Notes under the pieces: model-generated | Database searches by the model: none | What the model was told of the DNA's origin: nothing | The model's input: the letters and a program-made list of their open reading frames with translations, nothing else | Shown: positions 3,354 to 10,032 of the stretch, one piece after another | How the letters are laid out: the number at the start of each line of letters is the position of its first letter | How positions within the stretch are numbered: position 1 is the first letter of the stretch | NCBI GenBank assembly: GCA_965204745.1 | Contig: OZ242010.1 | Coordinates: forward strand, 2,432,001-2,496,000 | DNA length: 64,000 nucleotides | Direction of reading: 5' to 3' | Origin: Candidatus Latescibacterota bacterium | GTDB lineage: Bacteria; Latescibacterota; UBA2968 | Translations under genes and position numbers: made by a program

Positions 3354-4178
3354 GTGAAACTCGCCGTGTGCAATGAATTTTTTGATGACTGGACAATTGA
3401 TCAGGTCTTTGACTACGCCGCGGAAATCGGCTGTGATGGCGTGGAAATCGCGCCCTTTACACTGGCCCCAAGCGTGACGGACATTTCGGCAAAACAGCGC
3501 GGGGACATTCGCAAAGCCGCAGAACGTGCAGGCGTGGAAATCGTCGGCCTCCACTGGTTGCTCGCCAGTCCGCCGGGGCTGTACCTCACGCACCCAGACG
3601 AAACGATCCGCAACAAGACAGAGGCGTACATCAAGGCGTTGATCAATTTCTGCGGGGACTTGGGCGGCCGGATCATGATCCACGGATCCCCCGCACAGCG
3701 AAATATCCAAGAAGGCTGGGATCGCCAAGCCTGCTGGCAATATGCCGTTGACGTATTTTCCAACTGCACCCGCGACATGGAGGCCAACGACGTCACCTAT
3801 TGCATCGAAGCCCTGACCGGCAACGAGACCAATATCTTAAACGCCATCTCCGAAGCCCTCCAGATGGTCGCAGATGTGGGCCATCCCAATTTCCAGACGA
3901 TGGTGGATACCAAAGCCGCCGCCGCCGAGAACAAGTCCCATGTGGATGTGATCGCCGAGGCGGGCAAGGCCATGCGCCACGTCCACGTCAACGATCCCAA
4001 CTTGCGCGGGCCGGGATTTGGCGATTTGCAATTCGCCTCCATCCTCCGCGCCCTCAAAGACCGGCACTACGACGGCTATGTCTCCGTCGAAGTCTTCAAC
4101 TTCAAACCGGATCCGCAAACCATTGCCGCCCGTAGCATCGGCTACCTCAGAGGCATCTTGGAAGGCCTGGAGAATTAA
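3354..4178 (+). CDS. Sugar phosphate isomerase/epimerase (TIM barrel, tagatose/psicose 3-epimerase-like)
   Basis: GCDGVEIAPF, IEAL, HVHVNDPN, YDGYVSVEVF metal motifs; GTG start after AAGGA. Confidence 0.88.
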   Translation: MKLAVCNEFFDDWTIDQVFDYAAEIGCDGVEIAPFTLAPSVTDISAKQRGDIRKAAERAGVEIVGLHWLLASPPGLYLTHPDETIRNKTEAYIKALINFCGDLGGRIMIHGSPAQRNIQEGWDRQACWQYAVDVFSNCTRDMEANDVTYCIEALTGNETNILNAISEALQMVADVGHPNFQTMVDTKAAAAENKSHVDVIAEAGKAMRHVHVNDPNLRGPGFGDLQFASILRALKDRHYDGYVSVEVFNFKPDPQTIAARSIGYLRGILEGLEN

Positions 4179-4401
4179 CGGCCCGCAGGCGAGCACGAGG
4201 GCATCGCAAAAAGAAGTTGCTGCACAAAGGCGATGACTCGATTCATCGCCGCGAAGCCGGATGGCGCGCCTGGCTCGATTGGGGGCATCGCACGCTGAAG
4301 ATTTTCGATATTCGGGTCAATGTGTTGATCGACCCGCAATTTGAAACCGAGCATACCCATTGCCAAAGCCATGAGTTTTGTAATTTCAGCCGACGCAACA
4401 A

Positions 4402-4937
4402 CTCTGGCTACACTTCCATCAAAACAAGGATTGAAACAAATTTCGAGATACGCGAATCGTTTCGAGGCGGGAACTCTCGCTACACTTCCATCAAAACGAG
4501 GATTGACAAATGGGGAAAATAGCTTAGATTTTTTGGACATTATAGAGAGGTTGTGATGAGGACATTGAATCGACATTGCGATGGGTGATTGGGATTCAAT
4601 GCACGATGTTCATCGTGTTGGTAGGATTGATGCTACCGGTGCTCTGGGTGCTGTTGAAAGGGCGTGCGGGATAACCTTAAACAGAGGTAAGACAATGACA
4701 ACTGATGAAAAATTGATTGAACACGAGACGCGCATCTCTCGGATGGAGGGTATTATTGAGGAGATTCGCACGCGGCTTACAGGGATGGAGGCTGGTCAGC
4801 GCGAACTTGGCAGGAAAATCGACAGCGTGAAGCATACGATTTTGGTGGGGTTGCTGTTTATCACCGGCTTGTTGTCGAAGATGGCGTTCTTTGATTGATG
4901 CCTCTCGCTACACTTCCATCAAAACGAGGATTGAAAC
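4402..4937 (+). CRISPR. Orphan CRISPR mini-array: three 36-bp repeats (4402-4437, 4474-4509, 4902-4937) with a 36-bp spacer and a 392-bp gene-containing interval
   Basis: Consensus CTCTCGCTACACTTCCATCAAAACGAGGATTGAAAC has the typical ATTGAAAC 3' end. Spacer 1 is 4438-4473. No cas genes in the window. Confidence 0.8.
4695..4898 (+). CDS. Small coiled-coil protein with C-terminal TM helix (XhlA/DUF1640-like architecture), between CRISPR repeats 2 and 3
   Basis: MTTDEKLIEHETRISRMEGIIEEIRTRL...ILVGLLFITGLL; GAGG RBS; stop codon 3 bp before repeat 3. Confidence 0.7.
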   Translation: MTTDEKLIEHETRISRMEGIIEEIRTRLTGMEAGQRELGRKIDSVKHTILVGLLFITGLLSKMAFFD

Positions 4938-5176
4938 CCGACCGAGCGGCGATTCCAGCGGGCCGGTAGGTGGTCAACGACGGCTACGGTTCGTGCGGGA
5001 ATAGAATATAGCCAACAGCGAGGACGCTTCTGAATTTTAGCAGTCGTCTGACGCTGGGGCCGTCCCTTATTTGCAGGATATCCCTCCCGTCATTCCCGCG
5101 GCGCAACGCGACCCAAGGCGGGTTTTCAACCAACTTCTCTATTTGTTTAGATAAGTTACAAGGAGGGTTGAACGCG

Positions 5177-6349
5177 ATGCAAAAGATACCTTCGGCATAT
5201 CAGGTGGGATACGAAAAAGCGCACCTACGCAATCCAAGTCTCGCCGCAAAGTACATTGAACACACGCGCCTCAATGACCCGGTCGCTGATGCGGTCATTG
5301 AGTCGTTGGCTGAGTTCGAGCATGGACAGGTCCATCGCTTCATCAAGGCCGGCATGGAACAAAACGCGCCGATCCTCGCGGACGCGCCGCGGCTGTTGCG
5401 CGACTTTTTTGAAGAACTCGAAACGCCCCCGGCGTGGTTTGATCGGGACGCGGTTTTTCCGGGCCGCCAAGCCTTCCACGAGTACTCGGACTTGTTCATC
5501 CCCGCATTCTTTGTCGCCACCCTCCAAAACGCTTCCACTTTGATCAGCAAGGCGTTTTATACGACGGGCCGGGTATTGAGCGGTTTCGGGGCCAGGCGAA
5601 TCCGGCAAAACACCCGGCACTTCATCGAGATTATGCTCCCGGGATCCTTAGAACGGCAGTCAGATGGCTGGAAGCAATCGGTCCGCATCCGGCTAGTCCA
5701 CGCACAGGTCAGGCGGTTGATTCGTTCCTCGGGCAACTGGGACGAGTCGGTCTATGGAGTGCCCCTCAGCGCCGCGCATCTCGCGCTCGCGTCGGCCAAC
5801 TTTTCCGCGACGATACTGAAGCATGTACAGACGCTCGGGGCGCAACTAGACGATGCCGCTCGCAACGGTTTCATGCAGATCTGGTGCTATGCTTCAACGC
5901 TGATCGGTACGCCCGAGGCCCTCCTATTCGATGGAGACGAGGCCAAAACCAAGGCGCTGTCCCAACTCGCGCACCTCTGCGAACCGTCGCCTGGCGATGA
6001 ATCGGTTGCAATCGCGAATGCGCTGGTCAAAGCCCTGCCCGATATCGCCAGAAAGACCGATCCTGGCGACCGACAATCCATGGTGGATCATACGTACCGG
6101 GTCTCGCGCGCGCTCCTCGGCGACGAACTCGCCGATCAACTTTCGTTTCCCCGGCAATCGGCGGCGGGACTGCTGACGTGGATGCGGTTGCAACGCCGTG
6201 CCCACAGGATCTCCCACCGCATGGCACCGGGCGTCGCCCAAAAGTGGCGCGGGAAGAACTTCGTCTTTCTGCTCAAAGCGTCGATGCTCGATGATCTCAG
6301 CTACCGGATCCCGGATCACTTGAAGGCAGACGAGGCGACTCCGTGGTGA
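5177..6349 (+). CDS. Oxygenase MpaB / DUF2236 (Lcp-like) family protein
   Basis: DPVADAVI, PPAWFD, RRIRQNTRHF, VRIRLVHAQVR and WDES.YGVPLS motifs; AGGAGG RBS. Confidence 0.8.
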   Translation: MQKIPSAYQVGYEKAHLRNPSLAAKYIEHTRLNDPVADAVIESLAEFEHGQVHRFIKAGMEQNAPILADAPRLLRDFFEELETPPAWFDRDAVFPGRQAFHEYSDLFIPAFFVATLQNASTLISKAFYTTGRVLSGFGARRIRQNTRHFIEIMLPGSLERQSDGWKQSVRIRLVHAQVRRLIRSSGNWDESVYGVPLSAAHLALASANFSATILKHVQTLGAQLDDAARNGFMQIWCYASTLIGTPEALLFDGDEAKTKALSQLAHLCEPSPGDESVAIANALVKALPDIARKTDPGDRQSMVDHTYRVSRALLGDELADQLSFPRQSAAGLLTWMRLQRRAHRISHRMAPGVAQKWRGKNFVFLLKASMLDDLSYRIPDHLKADEATPW

Positions 6350-6370
6350 CCTCTCCGACCATCCCCCCGG

Positions 6371-6404
6371 TTTAGCCACGAGCGGGGTACAACTGGCGAT
6401 AGCC
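6371..6404. repeat. Dispersed 34-bp intergenic repeat (identical copy at 59314-59347)
   Basis: TTTAGCCACGAGCGGGGTACAACTGGCGATAGCC at both sites, each followed shortly by AAAGGCACAAAAG. Confidence 0.85.
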
Positions 6405-6436
6405 ACAAAAGGCACAAAAGGCACAAAAAGGGCCCC

Positions 6437-7474
6437 GTGGTGACCTCTCCCATCCCTCCCATCTTTGTACTGAGCACAGGGCGGTGCGGCTCGACGATGG
6501 TGTCGAACATCCTAAACCATCATCCGCGCGTGCTCAGCCTCTCCGAACTCATCAGCTATATCGGGATACGCTCGTTCAGCCGTCGTCGGACCACTGGCGA
6601 TTGGATGTGGGAACGCTATAGCCGGCAACAGCCGCGAACCCGTCTCATGTTGCAGGGGCGGTACGAGGAACTGCTTTACCCGCTCGACGATCCCAACAGC
6701 CGTTTCACGCAGGACGACGTGCCGCCTATTCTGTGTGCCACGCTCCCACACCTCACCGAACGGTACGAGGACTTGTTCGATGCGCTCGAGCCGATGGTGC
6801 GGGGCCAGCCGAGACAGTCGCCGGCCGACCACCTCCGGCATTTTATCGCGTGGTTGTGCCAACGGTACGGTTGCTGCACTTGGGCCGAACGCTCGGGCGG
6901 GTCCCTTCTTTTCGCTTCTAGATTGCTACACGAGTTTCCCGAGGCGCGGGTGATCCACGTGTACCGCGATGGACGGGAAACGGCCATCTCGATGAGTCGG
7001 CACTACCTCTTTCGCCTGATCGCCGCGACCATGCTGGCACTTCGATCCTTTGGATTCGATGCGATGAAATCGCTCGCTCGGGGAAGGCACTGGGAGCGAC
7101 TCAGCTCGCGCTTGGAGCCGTTGACGAGATTGTTGCTGAACCCCGCAAAGCTGCCCTACGACGAGCTGACACTCCGCGATTTCGGGGTTCTCTGGAGCGC
7201 GATGATCGAGCGGGGAGACCGCATGCTCAGCCGCTTGCCATCAGGCCACCTGCTAAATGTCAAGTTCGAGGCCATACAGGCGGATCCGGACCGCGAGATC
7301 CGGCGTCTCATTCGATTCATCGATCCATCGCTGGAAGATGAGGCATGGCTGGGCGCGGCGCGCTCAATCCCGCGACAAACGACGTCCAAGTTCGCGCAAC
7401 TTACCGCTGGCGATCAGGCCGCGCTCTCCGCAACGTGCCGCCCTGGGCTTGAACGCCTGGGATATCCGCTCTGA
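6437..7474 (+). CDS. Sulfotransferase family protein
   Basis: 5'-PSB motif STGRCGST; 3'-PB motif IHVYRDGRETAIS. Confidence 0.88.
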   Translation: MVTSPIPPIFVLSTGRCGSTMVSNILNHHPRVLSLSELISYIGIRSFSRRRTTGDWMWERYSRQQPRTRLMLQGRYEELLYPLDDPNSRFTQDDVPPILCATLPHLTERYEDLFDALEPMVRGQPRQSPADHLRHFIAWLCQRYGCCTWAERSGGSLLFASRLLHEFPEARVIHVYRDGRETAISMSRHYLFRLIAATMLALRSFGFDAMKSLARGRHWERLSSRLEPLTRLLLNPAKLPYDELTLRDFGVLWSAMIERGDRMLSRLPSGHLLNVKFEAIQADPDREIRRLIRFIDPSLEDEAWLGAARSIPRQTTSKFAQLTAGDQAALSATCRPGLERLGYPL

Positions 7475-7515
7475 GCCTACCTAAGTAGATTTATCATTGG
7501 GAATAAGGTACATCA

Positions 7516-8118
7516 ATGCCGCGTAAAAATAGGTTTCTCAACATCGGCGACCCGGCCCCCTTATTCACGCTTCCCTCGCATCAGCAACGAGACGTGTCGC
7601 TGGCGTCACATCGAGGGAAAGACCGCGTCATCCTGACGTTTTTTCGGGGAACTTGGTGAAGGAGAAGCCGTCGTCAGTTGGCGACCGTGCAAGAACACCT
7701 TGACGCGTACACCCAACGCAACGCGACGTCTATTGCCATCGCCGCCGGGCAACAGGTCCGCGAACTGCGCGAATACGCCGAACGCAACGGCATCACCTAT
7801 CCGCTTCTGTTGGACGCAGACCAGAGCGTAATCAAAAGCTACGGGGTATATCACTATTTCGGCCTAGCGGGTCACAATTTCGCGTACAACATTTTTCGCC
7901 CGGCGACGTTCATCGCCGACAAACTCGGCTATCCGTTGTACAACTATATCGGCTTGGCGGATCGCAACCTCCGCAACACCATTGCCCGTCCCGCGACGTT
8001 TATCATCGATGAACTCGGCATGGTCCGGTATATGTATATCGGATCGAATCAGTTTGATTTGGCCGAACAGGAAGAAGTTCTCGCACACTTAAAATCGCTG
8101 AAGAGTGAGATCCAGTAA
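7516..8118 (+). CDS. AhpC/TSA (peroxiredoxin-like) protein with in-frame UGA, probable selenoprotein
   Basis: The ATG at 7516 reads ...LNIGDPAPLFTLPS...ILTFFRGTW-TGA(7657)-RRSRRQLA and continues in frame into the 7678-8118 ORF (YPLLLDAD, RPATFIID). UGA occupies the catalytic Cys position, with a hairpin 10 nt downstream. Confidence 0.75.
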
Positions 8119-8187
8119 GAGACTTCGTCGCCGCCTCGAATATCATCCAGATGCACTGAACAACCCGGCACCGTCGAGCAGGAAAAT

Positions 8188-8228
8188 CTCTCTCTACACG
8201 TCCATCAGTGAGAGGAGCGGATTGAAAC
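8188..8228 (+). CRISPR. Degenerate copy of the CRISPR repeat
   Basis: CTCTCTCTACACGTCCATCAGTGAGAGGAGCGGATTGAAAC versus consensus CTCTCGCTACACTTCCATCAAAACGAGGATTGAAAC. Confidence 0.6.
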
Positions 8229-8243
8229 GCAAAAAGAAAAGGG

Positions 8244-8272
8244 TTGTGCTCGGCAGGCGATCTGTGTAAATT
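8244..8272 (+). promoter_or_regulatory. Putative sigma-70 promoter of the tRNA-like RNA
   Basis: TTGTGC-17 bp-TAAATT (same -10 as the tRNA-Phe promoter), ending 6 bp before the closing stem. Confidence 0.5.
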
Positions 8273-8278
8273 TTGCCT

Positions 8279-8391
8279 GCCCTTACAATGCAATGTAGAT
8301 CTCAATTTGGTAGAGTGGCTCGCCGAGGCAACTCGGTCAGCGGGTTGCGGGTTCGAGTCCCGTCATTGCGTTGTGGGGGCTATTTTTTTTT
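8279..8391 (+). ncRNA. tRNA-like structured RNA lacking an anticodon loop and CCA
   Basis: 17-bp closing stem (8279-8295/8364-8380), D-arm-like CTCAATTTGGTAGAG, CCGAG-GCAA-CTCGG GNRA hairpin in place of the anticodon arm, canonical T arm GCGGG-TTCGAGT-CCCGT, then a T-run. Confidence 0.7.
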
Positions 8392-8518
8392 CCACTTCTA
8401 ACAAGGATTGAATGGCTTAGGTTTTTGGACATTAGCAACATTGAATCGACATAACGTAGATATGAACACATCGTTGACGCAGGCGTTTCGCCTAAATGCA
8501 ATGGCTGAACGACGCAGA

Positions 8519-8761: not shown

Positions 8762-9655
8762 TCAAACCCTGCCAAATTCCAAAACGCTGTGGGCGATTCG
8801 CACCTCGAGGCCGATAGGCAGGACGCGGCGGGACTTGCCGTGGCCGTAGGGCAGGTCGCAATACACCGGGCAGGACACGCGCATAGCAAAATCCGCGAGC
8901 ACGTCTTCGAGTTGCCCCTCGGATTCGCACTCGGGTTCGCAACCCACAAATTCGCCGAACACCACGCCCGCGGCGCGATCAAATGCCCCGGCCATTGCCA
9001 GTTGATTCAGCATGCGATCTACGCGATAGGGCGGCTCATTCACGTCCTCCAGCGCGATCACCGCGCCTTCGCATTGCGGGAAAAACGCCGTGCCTGCCAG
9101 CGACACCATGAGCGATAAACACCCGCCGATCAGCGTGCCCGTGGCCTCGCCCTCGCGCAGGGCCGTCAAGGGGATGGGCGCGAACCGATGCGAACACACC
9201 GCGTCCCACAACGCGCTTTCGGTCTCGGCATGGAGACCCTCTGTCGTCACATCCGAACACAGGGACAGCCCGGAAAACGTGACCAGTGCCGCACGGTCAT
9301 AGATACCCAACTGCAACGCCGTCGTATCGCTCAGGCCGACCAACGCCTTGGGGTTTTGCGCGATCAACGCCCAATCCAACAAGTCCAAAATGCGGGCCGC
9401 GCCATATCCGCCACGCGCCACAAAAATGCCCTTCACATCTGTATCCGCAAACATCGCATGCACATCGTCTGCCCGCGCCCGATCCGTTCCCGCCAGATAC
9501 CGATCTCGTGCGTAGAGCGACTCGCCCTCGCGCACGCGAAATCCCCGCTGTTGCAAATACGCCACTCCCGGCGTCAACCGCTCGCGCTCGAATGACCCGG
9601 ATGGCGCGATGATCCCGACTGTATCGCCGGGTTGTAATTTGGAGGGAAGAGTCAT
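8762..9655 (-). CDS. ldcA: LD-carboxypeptidase (peptidase S66)
   Basis: LQPGDTVGIIAPS, YLAGTD..RA, RGGYG, GLSDTTAL, LEDVNE, PYGHG catalytic motifs. Confidence 0.9.
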   Translation of the reverse strand: MTLPSKLQPGDTVGIIAPSGSFERERLTPGVAYLQQRGFRVREGESLYARDRYLAGTDRARADDVHAMFADTDVKGIFVARGGYGAARILDLLDWALIAQNPKALVGLSDTTALQLGIYDRAALVTFSGLSLCSDVTTEGLHAETESALWDAVCSHRFAPIPLTALREGEATGTLIGGCLSLMVSLAGTAFFPQCEGAVIALEDVNEPPYRVDRMLNQLAMAGAFDRAAGVVFGEFVGCEPECESEGQLEDVLADFAMRVSCPVYCDLPYGHGKSRRVLPIGLEVRIAHSVLEFGRV

Positions 9656-9665
9656 AGTGGTCAGT

Positions 9666-10032
9666 GGCGTCGTTGCATAAATGGCGATAGCCTGCTGTTT
9701 GGGGTAGCAAAAAGACAGGCTCCTTCGCAGATTGGGCATATTTGTCACCGCCACAACACCCTTTCTCACAAGGAACCTGTCATGGCTAAGATAGCCTCTT
9801 CCAAGACCTCCGTCAATGCCCCTCGTCGCCGGTGCTGTGAGACTTGTCTATCGGGTGCGGAACTAGGCGGCTTACGAGGCTGGCCTCAAGTAGCGGGGCA
9901 GTCTGACGTTTTGGATCACGCCTCGAGCCCTTCGGGGCTGGTACTTTCAAGGGCCGACGCAACGGGGGCGCAAACTTGGCGATCCAAACAGCGGTGATGG
10001 TGTGTTTGTTCTATCCCTTGCCCCTGCGCCAA
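9666..10032 (+). pseudogene. Truncated, decayed IS5 (IS903-like) fragment: left IR plus 5' end of the transposase
   Basis: Left end GGCGTCGTTGCATAAAT and leader AAAAAGACAGGCTCCTTCG...GGAACCTGTCATG match the intact IS at 59581. The fragment is frameshifted and ends at TTGCCCCTGCGCCAA. Confidence 0.88.

Follow-up and report, generated by a model that had tools for sequence, protein, structure and literature searches.

The closest described systems to the locus considered here are the mini-arrays of CreTA and CrePA modules, the solitary repeats known as Racr, orphan or degenerate CRISPR arrays and, with respect to the protein that the locus encodes, XhlA (PF10779) and other small proteins of phage lysis cassettes. 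In the accessible parts of the CreTA/CrePA reports (10.1101/2024.01.05.574328, PMC8501985, PMC9458426), two repeats flank one spacer, the CreA-like guide, with which Cascade represses the promoter of an adjacent toxic gene, and a version with a protein toxin, CreP, has been described (10.1101/2024.01.05.574328). The available portion of PMC10651486 places RacrIC1 11 nt after acrIC5 in a racr-acr bicistron and gives the SRUFinder definition of a solitary repeat, namely one that matches a known CRISPR repeat and lies more than 100 bp from any other repeat. Orphan and degenerate arrays have genuine repeats, spacers of normal length and a degenerate terminal repeat, lack cas genes and a leader, and undergo repeat-mediated deletions, while the XhlA-type proteins are about 70 residues long, with an N-terminal coiled-coil helix running into a C-terminal membrane segment.

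Here, we describe a locus within a 64,000-nt stretch of a Candidatus Latescibacterota genome (the window) in which a two-repeat mini-array is followed, 392 bp further on, by a third repeat, with a small membrane-protein gene in between. An earlier note had offered two readings of this arrangement, a gene captured in a CRISPR array or a repeat-processed or repeat-regulated toxin module; the former turned out to be the best reading and the latter found no support. The three repeats are probably a remnant of a decaying orphan array into which other DNA has been captured, and look like recombination debris rather than a functioning toxin switch under repeat control. The remnant shares with orphan arrays all of the properties listed above, but differs from them in that two of its repeats bracket 392 bp of non-spacer DNA with an intact gene, and in being interleaved with ordinary genes over about 4 kb.

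Three repeats of a type I-B family

The mini-array, the third repeat and the enclosed gene are laid out as follows.

4402-4437, + strand: repeat R1, 36 nt (CTCTGGCTACACTTCCATCAAAACAAGGATTGAAAC), identical to R3 at 34 of 36 positions
4438-4473, + strand: spacer S1, 36 nt, the usual length for this repeat family
4474-4509, + strand: repeat R2, its first 33 nt identical to R3, with a degenerate 3' end, GACAA
4510-4901: gene-bearing stretch between R2 and R3, 392 bp
4695-4898, + strand: intact 67-aa ORF (family 1), with the ribosome-binding site GAGG at 4684-4687 and a TGA stop at 4896-4898
4902-4937, + strand: repeat R3, intact, beginning 3 nt past the stop codon of the 67-aa ORF

The layout reported earlier, three repeats enclosing a 36-bp spacer and then 392 bp with an ORF, holds at these coordinates, as does the remark that the end of R2 differs from that of the intact repeat. 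Pairwise identity among R1, R2 and R3 is 32-34 of 36 positions, and R2 and R3 differ from R1 at two shared positions. Their direct orientation, length of about 36 nt and conserved 3' ATTGAAAC are as expected of an array, and their number exceeds chance: a 30-nt core of the repeat, sought with at most three mismatches, matches three times in the window against none in 100 shuffles, and the whole 5.48-Mb genome yields only R1, R2 and R3. R1 additionally gives a weak match to the Rfam family CRISPR-DR7 (24.3 bits, short of the gathering score, 37). Regular arrays have unique spacers of about 35-39 nt; R1 and R2 are spaced in this way, but R2 and R3, 392 bp apart, are not. The repeats are unstructured, since they fold no better than shuffled sequences, and no terminator-like hairpin was found 3' of R3.

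By comparison with sister species, R1-R3 are real CRISPR repeats and not dispersed REP-like elements, because their family is arranged in regular arrays next to type I-B cas operons in both G001 (62 copies) and G016 (141 copies); the earlier identification of the repeats as CRISPR is thus upheld. In these arrays, the repeats are spaced 71-76 bp apart and the adjoining operon reads cas6b-cas8b-cas7-cas5-cas3-cas1. The present genome (G000) holds the three array-type copies, two diverged solitary copies and one chimeric copy. A search of this single-contig genome, 97.65% complete, returned no match to Cas6b, either with Pfam PF17262 or with the Cas6b protein of G001, so that cas genes acting in trans, as suggested, would lack the Cas6b with which the family is paired in other genomes. 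What this genome does have is a type I-C system and a partial, Cascade-only I-B system (cas6, cas8b1, cas7 and cas5, with no cas3 seen beside them), each with a different repeat, the nearest lying about 1 Mb and about 1.6 Mb from the locus. All three repeat types (the R1-R3 family, the genome's own I-B and its own I-C) end in ATTGAAAC, and R1-R3 copy a foreign, Cas6b-type family almost perfectly, rather than being degenerate forms of the genome's own repeats. Within the 64 kb, the reported absence of cas genes was borne out by PADLOC, whose cas models matched none of the 53 ORFs of at least 120 aa, nor the 67-aa ORF.

The mini-array is also leaderless. When positions 4102-4401, upstream of R1, are aligned to the G016 and G001 leaders, the scores are 52 and 50, respectively, within the range of shuffles, whereas the two leaders aligned to one another score 416.5.

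Composition of the 392-bp interval

Upstream of the 67-aa ORF, the interval and the end of R2 contain three further features.

4503-4530, + strand: promoter-like TTGACA-16-TAGATT, partly made by the degenerate R2 end, agreeing at 10 of 12 positions
4510-4575, + strand: trailer-like sequence, with the blocks GCTTAGxTTTTTGGACATTA and ACATTGAATCGACAT in common with 8413-8455
4573-4676, + strand: family-2 remnant, a 5'-truncated small coiled-coil/transmembrane gene reading ...TLRWVIGIQCTMFIVLVGLMLPVLWVLLKGRAG*

R2 behaves like a terminal repeat in that, together with its downstream sequence, it is paralogous to a degenerate repeat and trailer at 8393-8455. Pairwise local alignment of the two units scores 68, against 33.4 +/- 5.8 for shuffles (maximum 53.5); a three-way MAFFT alignment gave no information. 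The trailer-like sequence is joined to the family-2 remnant at a common ACAT. The 392 bp, which the earlier note had called a spacer, is functionally no spacer at all, and its sequence is a patchwork of trailer-like DNA, a truncated family-2 gene and an intact family-1 gene.

The TTGACA-16-TAGATT sequence formed at the end of R2 is present as described, yet as a promoter it does not stand out from chance, since a scan of 1.2 kb finds two sites of this kind, where shuffles give 0.9 +/- 0.9. Nor could a target be assigned to S1. No match was found in phage records, in IMG/VR (where only exact matches were sought) or among 252 spacers of related arrays, and in the genome itself a single 14-mer matches against 0.94 expected. 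S1 shares no run of at least 8 nt with 4100-5300 on either strand, and seed-anchored comparison with the local region gives best values of 9/12 (shuffle mean 8.5) and 12/20 (12.2), the 12-, 16- and 20-nt comparisons all lying within the shuffle range. S1 thus matches no sequence searched, the neighbouring promoter-like region included, beyond chance, and the idea that the mini-array regulates a toxin through a CreTA/CrePA-type circuit is not supported. As to the other sequence earlier marked for a spacer search, the 36 nt 3' of R3, it shares 14-mers with four other sites in the genome (nine matches against 0.94 expected), and 4937-4984 occurs in another context in contigs of three sequencing runs, as loose ends. 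Since its 14-mers are dispersed in the genome and its continuation occurs in other contexts, these 36 nt resemble flanking or dispersed sequence more than a spacer.

The 67-residue protein

The earlier description of a whole gene between the repeats, with its own ribosome-binding site and a stop 3 bp before R3, proved accurate, GAGG lying 7 nt upstream of the ATG. A longer, 105-aa reading from the ATG at 4581 was rejected, as homology to paralogues begins at the 67-aa form's Met, and what lies upstream of it overlaps, in a different frame, the truncated remnant of family 2.

The product is predicted to be a tail-anchored helical membrane protein with one long helix and a C-terminal membrane segment, in keeping with the coiled-coil and transmembrane region noted before. 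AlphaFold2 models a single helix over residues 2-66 (mean pLDDT 88.5), and the 19-residue Kyte-Doolittle profile reaches its maximum of 1.97 at residues 48-66. Family 1 is multi-copy, chromosomal in several species and lineage-restricted, with 11 representative clusters at E<=1e-10 among 1.84 billion proteins. Pfam, PHROGs and PADLOC returned no family above threshold for the ORF. Below threshold, it matches a PHROG annotated 'hemolysin' at E 0.0023 and XhlA at 13.6 bits (cut-off 34.7); the XhlA model PF10779 finds weak matches in 5 of 10 family-1 members (best E 0.019) and none above the cut-off. In feature space it lies nearest, at 0.93-0.94, to small proteins of viruses and to a cluster of the XhlA family. 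The protein therefore resembles XhlA in size, in its helix-to-membrane layout and in weak profile and feature-space similarity, but all scores fall below the cut-off and the family is chromosomal, multi-copy and confined to this lineage.

Family-1 genes are not as a rule associated with repeats. None of 12 family-1 loci elsewhere, among 17 loci scanned, carries a repeat, the single repeat match in that scan being the family-2 unit of G016. A metagenome scan with the 67-aa protein turned up no orthologous locus and just a single weak relative, matching in part (45% over residues 1-33), and a genus-wide DNA search with the whole locus found, in 20 other species, only array repeats and distant paralogues, with no orthologous repeat-gene-repeat arrangement.

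Flanks and the probable site of an ancestral array

The sequence on either side of the repeats contains the following features.

4199-4349, + strand: pseudogene fragment, 151 bp, copied from within a 618-aa gene and 96% identical to it there
8188-8228, + strand: chimeric solitary repeat, 41 nt, its 5' half resembling the I-B family and its 3' half the genome's own I-C array repeat
8289-8371, + strand: tRNA-like element, 25.7 bits (below the gathering score of 29), shared with G016
8393-8455, + strand: degenerate terminal repeat (CACTTCTAACAAGGATTGA) and trailer, a second copy of the R2-plus-trailer unit
8762-9769, - strand: LD-carboxypeptidase gene, neighbour of the array trailer, conserved in G016 and G001

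The trailer side of the G016 array is orthologous to this region, with the LD-carboxypeptidase gene, the tRNA-like element (not called by ARAGORN), by which the synteny is anchored, and next to these a solitary or mini-repeat unit, the chimeric repeat here being the orthologue of a two-repeat mini-array in G016. The LD-carboxypeptidase gene flanks the G001 array too. In G032, from another family of the same order, degenerate repeats adjoin a DUF4432 gene, which is also found beside the flank of the G001 array; where the G032 arrays have large interruptions, these are IS elements, an instance of ordinary decay. At the other end of the locus, the 151-bp fragment lies 52 nt upstream of R1, at the expected position of a leader, and derives from an unrelated 618-aa gene elsewhere in the genome (copy at G000 466795-466945). 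The ordinary genes with which the remnant is interleaved, within 4180-8400, encode MpaB-like, sulfotransferase-like and AhpC-like proteins. Two ORFs, on the minus strand at 4175-4576 and on the plus strand at 4217-4522, were dismissed as chimeras that arise where the frame reads through the gene fragment and the repeats.

Variation among strains

Strain variation was assessed in contigs from four runs of four studies. One contig lacks R1 and S1 (joint 4399>4472) as well as 4620-4680, with the gene kept, and another lacks 4632-4680, so that both of these short deletions affect the family-2 remnant. In a further contig R1 is joined to R3 (4406>4907) and the gene is removed, while a contig of depth 6.26 carries a 1-nt deletion at 4857 in the ORF; P0002, a homologue from the database, shows this frameshift too, its reading frame running on through R3, and may not be independent of that contig. 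The ORF, its ribosome-binding site and the promoter-like site are retained in contigs of three of the four runs. The population still deletes and reshuffles the locus by recombination between repeats, and a functional repeat-regulated module, as formerly proposed, sits poorly with related strains that drop the repeat-spacer unit, drop the gene or frameshift it.

Solitary repeats beside small genes

The two diverged solitary copies in this genome, at G000 3257507-3257542 and 4011733-4011768, each lie about 11 nt past a family-2 gene and just before a terminator, in ordinary chromosomal neighbourhoods in which no phage or integrase genes were detected. Under the SRUFinder definition, as given in the available text of PMC10651486, both are fully solitary, R3 qualifies by its 392-bp distance from R2, and R1 and R2 make up a mini-array. 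The unit of family-2 gene, repeat and terminator (G000 3257465-3257790 at the first of these loci) recurs in G016, which has Cas6b, and is 85% identical between the two genomes, compared with 77-83% for neighbouring coding genes; a solitary repeat after a family-2 gene occurs in 2 of 53 genomes of the order, whose members are labelled as Latescibacterota MAGs. In G037, G032 and G002, too, repeats of the R1-R3 family lie directly beside stop and start codons of other small genes. In G037 and G032, an ATG lies 4-5 nt past the repeat end ...GATTGAAAC, and repeats follow stops at 3-11 nt after family 1 in the window, family 2 at the two other loci and in G016, and one G002 gene. Cas6b was not found in G037, G018 or G039, all of which have units of a repeat beside a small gene.

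Insofar as Racr is described in the accessible part of PMC10651486, R3 and the two diverged copies resemble it as solitary repeats a few bases after a small gene. They differ from it in that no mobile-element context (virus, prophage or plasmid) was detected at the window or at the two other loci, in that the host has no matching Cas6b/I-B system, having instead a I-C and a partial I-B system with different repeats, and in that the upstream genes are predicted from sequence to encode membrane proteins that are not Acr-like.

Origin and possible functions of the locus

To account for the orphan remnant we infer the following course of events, which would leave the locus without function. An ancestral type I-B (Cas6b-type) array would have sat by the LD-carboxypeptidase gene, at a site conserved across the order, and this species would then have lost the cas operon along with almost every repeat-spacer unit. 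R1-S1-R2 would be the surviving end of the array, R2 being of the terminal type and followed by trailer sequence, while the 392 bp would be non-CRISPR DNA joined by illegitimate and repeat-mediated recombination and ending at another array repeat, R3. Expression of the 67-aa gene may continue, by read-through or from the promoter-like site that arose by chance at the R2 end, and the repeats would have no present CRISPR function here, acting mainly as recombination substrates through which the locus is deleted and reshuffled. Set against this reading are the intact state of R3 so close to the stop codon and the retention of the ORF, its ribosome-binding site and the promoter-like site in most of the runs.

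An alternative that we consider unlikely is a cis-acting RNA element, in which the repeat after a small gene would be recognised on the mRNA by a Cas6-type nuclease, cleavage setting the 3' end or stability of the message or releasing a Racr-like decoy RNA, so that whether CRISPR-Cas is present or lost would be signalled by expression of a membrane protein that could be harmful. The close placement of repeats after the stops of small genes from unrelated families, and before the ATGs in G037 and G032, points this way, as do the family-2 unit, at least as conserved with G016 as the neighbouring coding genes, and the published Racr, which the available portion of PMC10651486 reports as co-transcribed 11 nt after a small gene; such tight packing, like that of racr-acr, hints at an RNA-level role that pure decay would not predict. 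What tells against this element is that the cognate Cas6b was not found in this genome, G037, G018 or G039, that the solitary-repeat variant occurs in so few genomes of the order, where its conservation may reflect close kinship, that the family-1 loci elsewhere carry no repeat, and that strains lose or frameshift the gene. A wider form of the idea, which strikes us as decidedly improbable, is that the order has co-opted type I-B repeats as Cas6b-recognised punctuation or 3'-UTR control of small protein genes. Cleavage by Cas6b would then mature or destabilise mRNAs or set free Racr-like decoys, cells would make small phage-like membrane proteins only where Cas6b had been lost or inhibited, as a post-transcriptional counterpart of CreTA, and the R2-gene-R3 arrangement of the window would be a decayed example left after loss of the cas operon.

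It is quite unlikely that the mini-array, solitary repeat and XhlA-like gene were brought in together as cargo of a phage or other element, either as a virus-borne mini-array or Racr or through integration between the element's own solitary repeat and a chromosomal array repeat. R2 and R3 agree over 33 nt and share both differences from R1, as an integration duplicate would; trailer-like direct repeats flank 4576-8392 beside the tRNA-like element; the 67-aa protein has viral and XhlA neighbours and the 'hemolysin' match; and a suggestion cited in PMC10651486, in its available part, holds that solitary repeats may enable viral integration into arrays. Yet 4180-8400 contains no integrase, phage structural or plasmid gene, the other solitary-repeat loci are ordinary chromosomal neighbourhoods, the gene family is chromosomal and multi-copy in several species, and every similarity to XhlA is below the Pfam cut-off. 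Addiction of the CreTA/CrePA type, with R1-S1-R2 as a CreA-like guide by which Cascade would repress the adjacent toxic protein's promoter, is very improbable. Its appeal lies in the arrangement, a two-repeat, one-spacer mini-array directly upstream of a promoter-like site and a gene for a small, possibly harmful, phage-like membrane protein, alongside the description of CreP (in the accessible text of 10.1101/2024.01.05.574328) and the Cascade-only partial I-B locus in this genome. Unlike those modules, however, the locus lies neither in nor beside a cas operon, its repeats are near-perfect copies of a foreign family and not degenerate own copies, there is no cognate effector, and S1 has no above-chance partial complementarity from its 5' end to the candidate promoter, such as their pseudo-spacers have next to a PAM; moreover, the strain that lacks R1 and S1 keeps the gene, a loss that a de-repressed toxin should not tolerate.

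Implications

Read as a remnant, the locus is a well-documented case of the death of a CRISPR locus, in which the cas genes and leader are gone and trailer repeats are retained at a conserved chromosomal site, interleaved with captured genes. Array-annotation pipelines would miss or miscall such a locus, for which the present case should be useful, and caution is advised in reading orphan repeats. The recurrence of solitary repeats a few bases from small genes, including in genomes without Cas6b, is worth following up; if these repeats act on mRNA, CRISPR nucleases would have a new means of controlling host genes.

The arrangement reported in the earlier note, two CRISPR repeats with a short spacer followed by a third repeat beyond a whole gene, was found correct in every element, namely the repeats, spacer, 392-bp interval, open reading frame (ORF), ribosome-binding site, stop distance and promoter-like site.

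Features of the mini-array
4402-4437: R1, 36-nt repeat
4438-4473: S1, 36-nt spacer
4474-4509: R2, 36-nt repeat, 3' end GACAA in place of GAAAC
4510-4901: R2-R3 interval, 392 bp
4695-4898: 67-aa ORF, GAGG 7 nt 5' of its ATG, stop 3 nt ahead of R3
4902-4937: R3, 36-nt repeat

The first 33 nt are the same in R2 and R3, while R1 departs from both at two common positions. The 30-nt core (up to 3 mismatches) occurs three times in the window versus never in 100 shuffles, with no further copy across the 5.48-Mb single-contig genome. The promoter-like TTGACA-16-TAGATT lies at 4503-4530, in a scan that gave 2 such sites in 1.2 kb against 0.9 expected. A dispersed REP-like element of about 31 bp, with the core ...GTGGCTAAACTTCCATCT..., is present at 6370-6400 and in dozens of copies across the genome; it is unrelated to the CRISPR repeat, although ACTTCCAT is common to both.

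The repeat family and the cas genes of the host

The repeat core is present in 12 of 40 relatives (13 of 41 genomes with the host, G000), six of which hold many copies: 62 and 141 in the sister species G001 and G016, and 79, 87, 37 and 33 in G025, G029, G032 and G035. In G001 and G016, the copies form regular arrays, with 71-76-bp spacing and without large gaps, that adjoin cas6b (Pfam Cas6b_N and Cas6b_C), a cas8b-like gene, cas7, cas5, cas3 and cas1, which establishes a true CRISPR repeat; its predicted fold is unstructured.

As had been claimed, no cas gene turned up in the window itself (0 matches to cas models among 53 long ORFs). Cas operons do exist elsewhere in the host, but beside other repeats: a type I-C operon adjoins an array of 193 repeats of another sequence (37 nt), and an array of 11 repeats (30 nt) adjoins the following locus.

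G000 846200-852100 (L056): partial type I-B locus with cas6, cas8b1, cas7 and cas5, ending at an IS701 transposase beside the array

No cas3, cas1, cas2 or cas4 was seen beside this partial locus, which might work as a Cascade-only system that is dead for interference. The Cas6b expected from the window's repeat family was found in the host neither by the Pfam model nor with the G001 protein.

A patchwork at a probable former array site

Comparison with the sister species places the locus at the site where relatives carry their array, and several features between the mini-array and an LD-carboxypeptidase gene are conserved.

Features of the flank
8188-8228: chimeric solitary repeat, 41 nt, aligning with a two-repeat unit at the equivalent place in G016
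8289-8371: tRNA-like element (Rfam tRNA 25.7 bits, just below cut-off; no ARAGORN call)
8393-8412: degenerate repeat, 3' of the tRNA-like element in both G000 and G016
8762-9769, minus strand: LD-carboxypeptidase gene, orthologous to the gene flanking the array in G016 and G001

The chimeric repeat resembles the I-B family repeat in its 5' half and the host's type I-C repeat in its 3' half; as the two repeat types stand side by side in G016 and in another relative, G037, this suggests that arrays of both systems formerly abutted and then recombined. The tRNA-like element, which has a good T-arm and acceptor end and is conserved with G016 beside the array trailer, might represent an ancient integration site or else a pseudo-tRNA. 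Degenerate repeats likewise adjoin a DUF4432 gene in G032, which belongs to a different family of the order; that gene also neighbours the G001 array flank. An AhpC/TSA-like peroxiredoxin frame at 7516-8118, apparently split into ORFs 7516-7659 and 7678-8118, may be a pseudogene within the same patchwork region.

Sequence 5' of R1 does not resemble the leaders of G016 and G001, which are well conserved, and holds instead a 151-bp fragment 96% identical to part of an unrelated 618-aa gene. At the other end, the 48 nt straight after R3 (4937-4984) recur in a different context in metagenome contigs of three runs, and the divergence from these contigs sets in precisely where R3 ends on its 3' side. 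That end of the repeat thus marks a boundary of recombination or insertion with respect to other strains or species.

The 392 bp between R2 and R3 form a patchwork instead of a spacer. The 3' portion of R2 and about 65 nt beyond are paralogous to the degenerate repeat and trailer at 8393-8455 (local alignment score 68; shuffles 33.4 +/- 5.8, maximum 53.5), so that R2 has the appearance of a terminal repeat followed by its trailer. Near 4573, the trailer-like sequence meets, at an ACAT common to both, the final third of a gene of family 2, a second family of small coiled-coil/TM genes with full copies at four other places in G000; the window copy lacks the 5' two-thirds, and the intact 67-aa ORF starts 18 nt after its stop.

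The enclosed gene

The 67-aa ORF has about ten paralogues in G000 (family 1; tblastn), which keep an ISRxEGIIEEIRxRL block and a GLLxKIAFF(N) C-terminal end and whose homology begins at its Met. AlphaFold2 gives a single unbroken helix (pLDDT 88.5), the last 19 residues of which are hydrophobic enough for a predicted membrane segment. Pfam returned nothing above cut-off for the family, with weak XhlA in 5 and FlaC_arch in 7 of 10 members; the PHROG 'hemolysin' family matched at E 0.0023, and the closest ESM-Atlas clusters (0.93-0.94) comprise small viral proteins and one cluster of the XhlA family. Against 1.84 billion representatives, a profile search gave 117 proteins at E<=1e-3 and just 11 at E<=1e-10, the GTDB relatives being labelled Latescibacterota MAGs. 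When 17 loci were scanned for the repeat, none of the 12 with family-1 genes had it, the sole match being a family-2 unit in G016. The gene is thus real, without being specifically tied to the repeats.

Strain variation was followed over 3900-5400 in metagenome contigs from four runs of four studies, which establish that variants exist, not their frequencies. The window arrangement recurs, in pieces, in contig X1, and the ORF is intact in a database homologue, P0001 (93% identity). X9 joins 4406 to 4907, an R1 x R3 recombination that removed the gene and left a single repeat; X6 lacks R1 and S1, has 9 nt in place of 4620-4680 and has lost 1 nt of the ORF at 4857 (low depth); a second homologue, P0002 (84%), shares this frameshift, its translation continuing through R3. 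X2 lacks 4632-4680.

Regulatory module, mobile cargo or relic

The earlier note was right that true CRISPR repeats surround a whole gene; its other proposal, a repeat-regulated toxin module, fared badly. For CreTA/CrePA, CRISPR-repressed toxin modules, 10.1101/2024.01.05.574328 describes a pseudo-spacer whose match to the promoter of the toxin starts at the 5' end of the pseudo-spacer, beside a PAM, and a location within a cas operon. By contrast, the window locus lies outside any cas operon, and no stretch of 8 nt or longer is common to S1 and 4100-5300, where the best seed-anchored matches of S1 fall inside the range of shuffled queries. Nor did S1 match anything else beyond chance: it matched no phage record and, in an exact search, nothing in IMG/VR; its one 14-mer in G000 compares with 0.94 expected; and 252 spacers of related arrays gave only short, chance-level matches to S1 or 4380-5000 (longest 13 nt). 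With Cas6b also not found, a CreTA-like circuit here is highly improbable.

Repeats beside small genes could act as cis RNA elements.

Gene-adjacent repeats outside the window
G000 3257507-3257542: diverged solitary repeat, nhmmer E 2.9e-8
G000 4011733-4011768: diverged solitary repeat, nhmmer E 5.3e-7
G000 3257465-3257790 (L079) and 4011694-4012100 (L090), G016 2158000-2158510 (L106): family-2 gene-repeat units
G037 contig 12 (L099 9500-14000, minus strand) and contig 34 (L102 6900-9400): small-gene runs with one CRISPR repeat of this family between genes

Each of the two solitary repeats in G000 follows a complete family-2 gene at about 11 nt and is itself immediately followed by a terminator, among ordinary chromosomal genes. 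The units are self-contained (about 460 bp) and run from a promoter region of their own, through the small coiled-coil/TM gene, in which the number of NRRIDDV-like repeats varies, and the diverged solitary repeat, to a rho-independent terminator. One such unit, at 85% identity, is present in G016, where Cas6b also occurs. In G037, repeat-like units spaced 215-1759 bp from one another number at least 9 on one contig and 4 on a second; they have small genes between them whose ATG falls 4-5 nt past ...GATTGAAAC. The products of several of these genes are paralogues of 58-67 aa that share a W-x-x-DGTP...PVPT motif, and the runs adjoin helicase and PLD-type defence-like genes. G032 has one gene-adjacent unit, and in G002 a stop codon is followed 10 nt later by a solitary repeat. 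RacrIC1, an RNA anti-CRISPR co-transcribed 11 nt after acrIC5 (PMC10651486), shows that a repeat placed just 3' of a small gene may have a function. Nevertheless, the variant after family-2 genes is limited to 2 of 53 genomes of the order, the large interruptions of the G032 arrays are plain IS elements, and repeats promote duplication and deletion of intervening DNA, which alone could yield tandem gene-repeat units. Cas6b searches were positive in G032 and G002 and gave no match in G037, G018 or G039, G037 also having no regular array of this repeat family. We regard a cis RNA role of the gene-adjacent repeats as unlikely, and an origin of the locus as mobile-element cargo as still less likely.

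On balance, the window locus is probably a pure relic, an orphan and decaying remnant of a CRISPR array. Such remnants are of a known kind, and the locus observed here is real; its unusual detail is that two of the repeats, apparently through recombination, enclose an intact gene for a small membrane protein.
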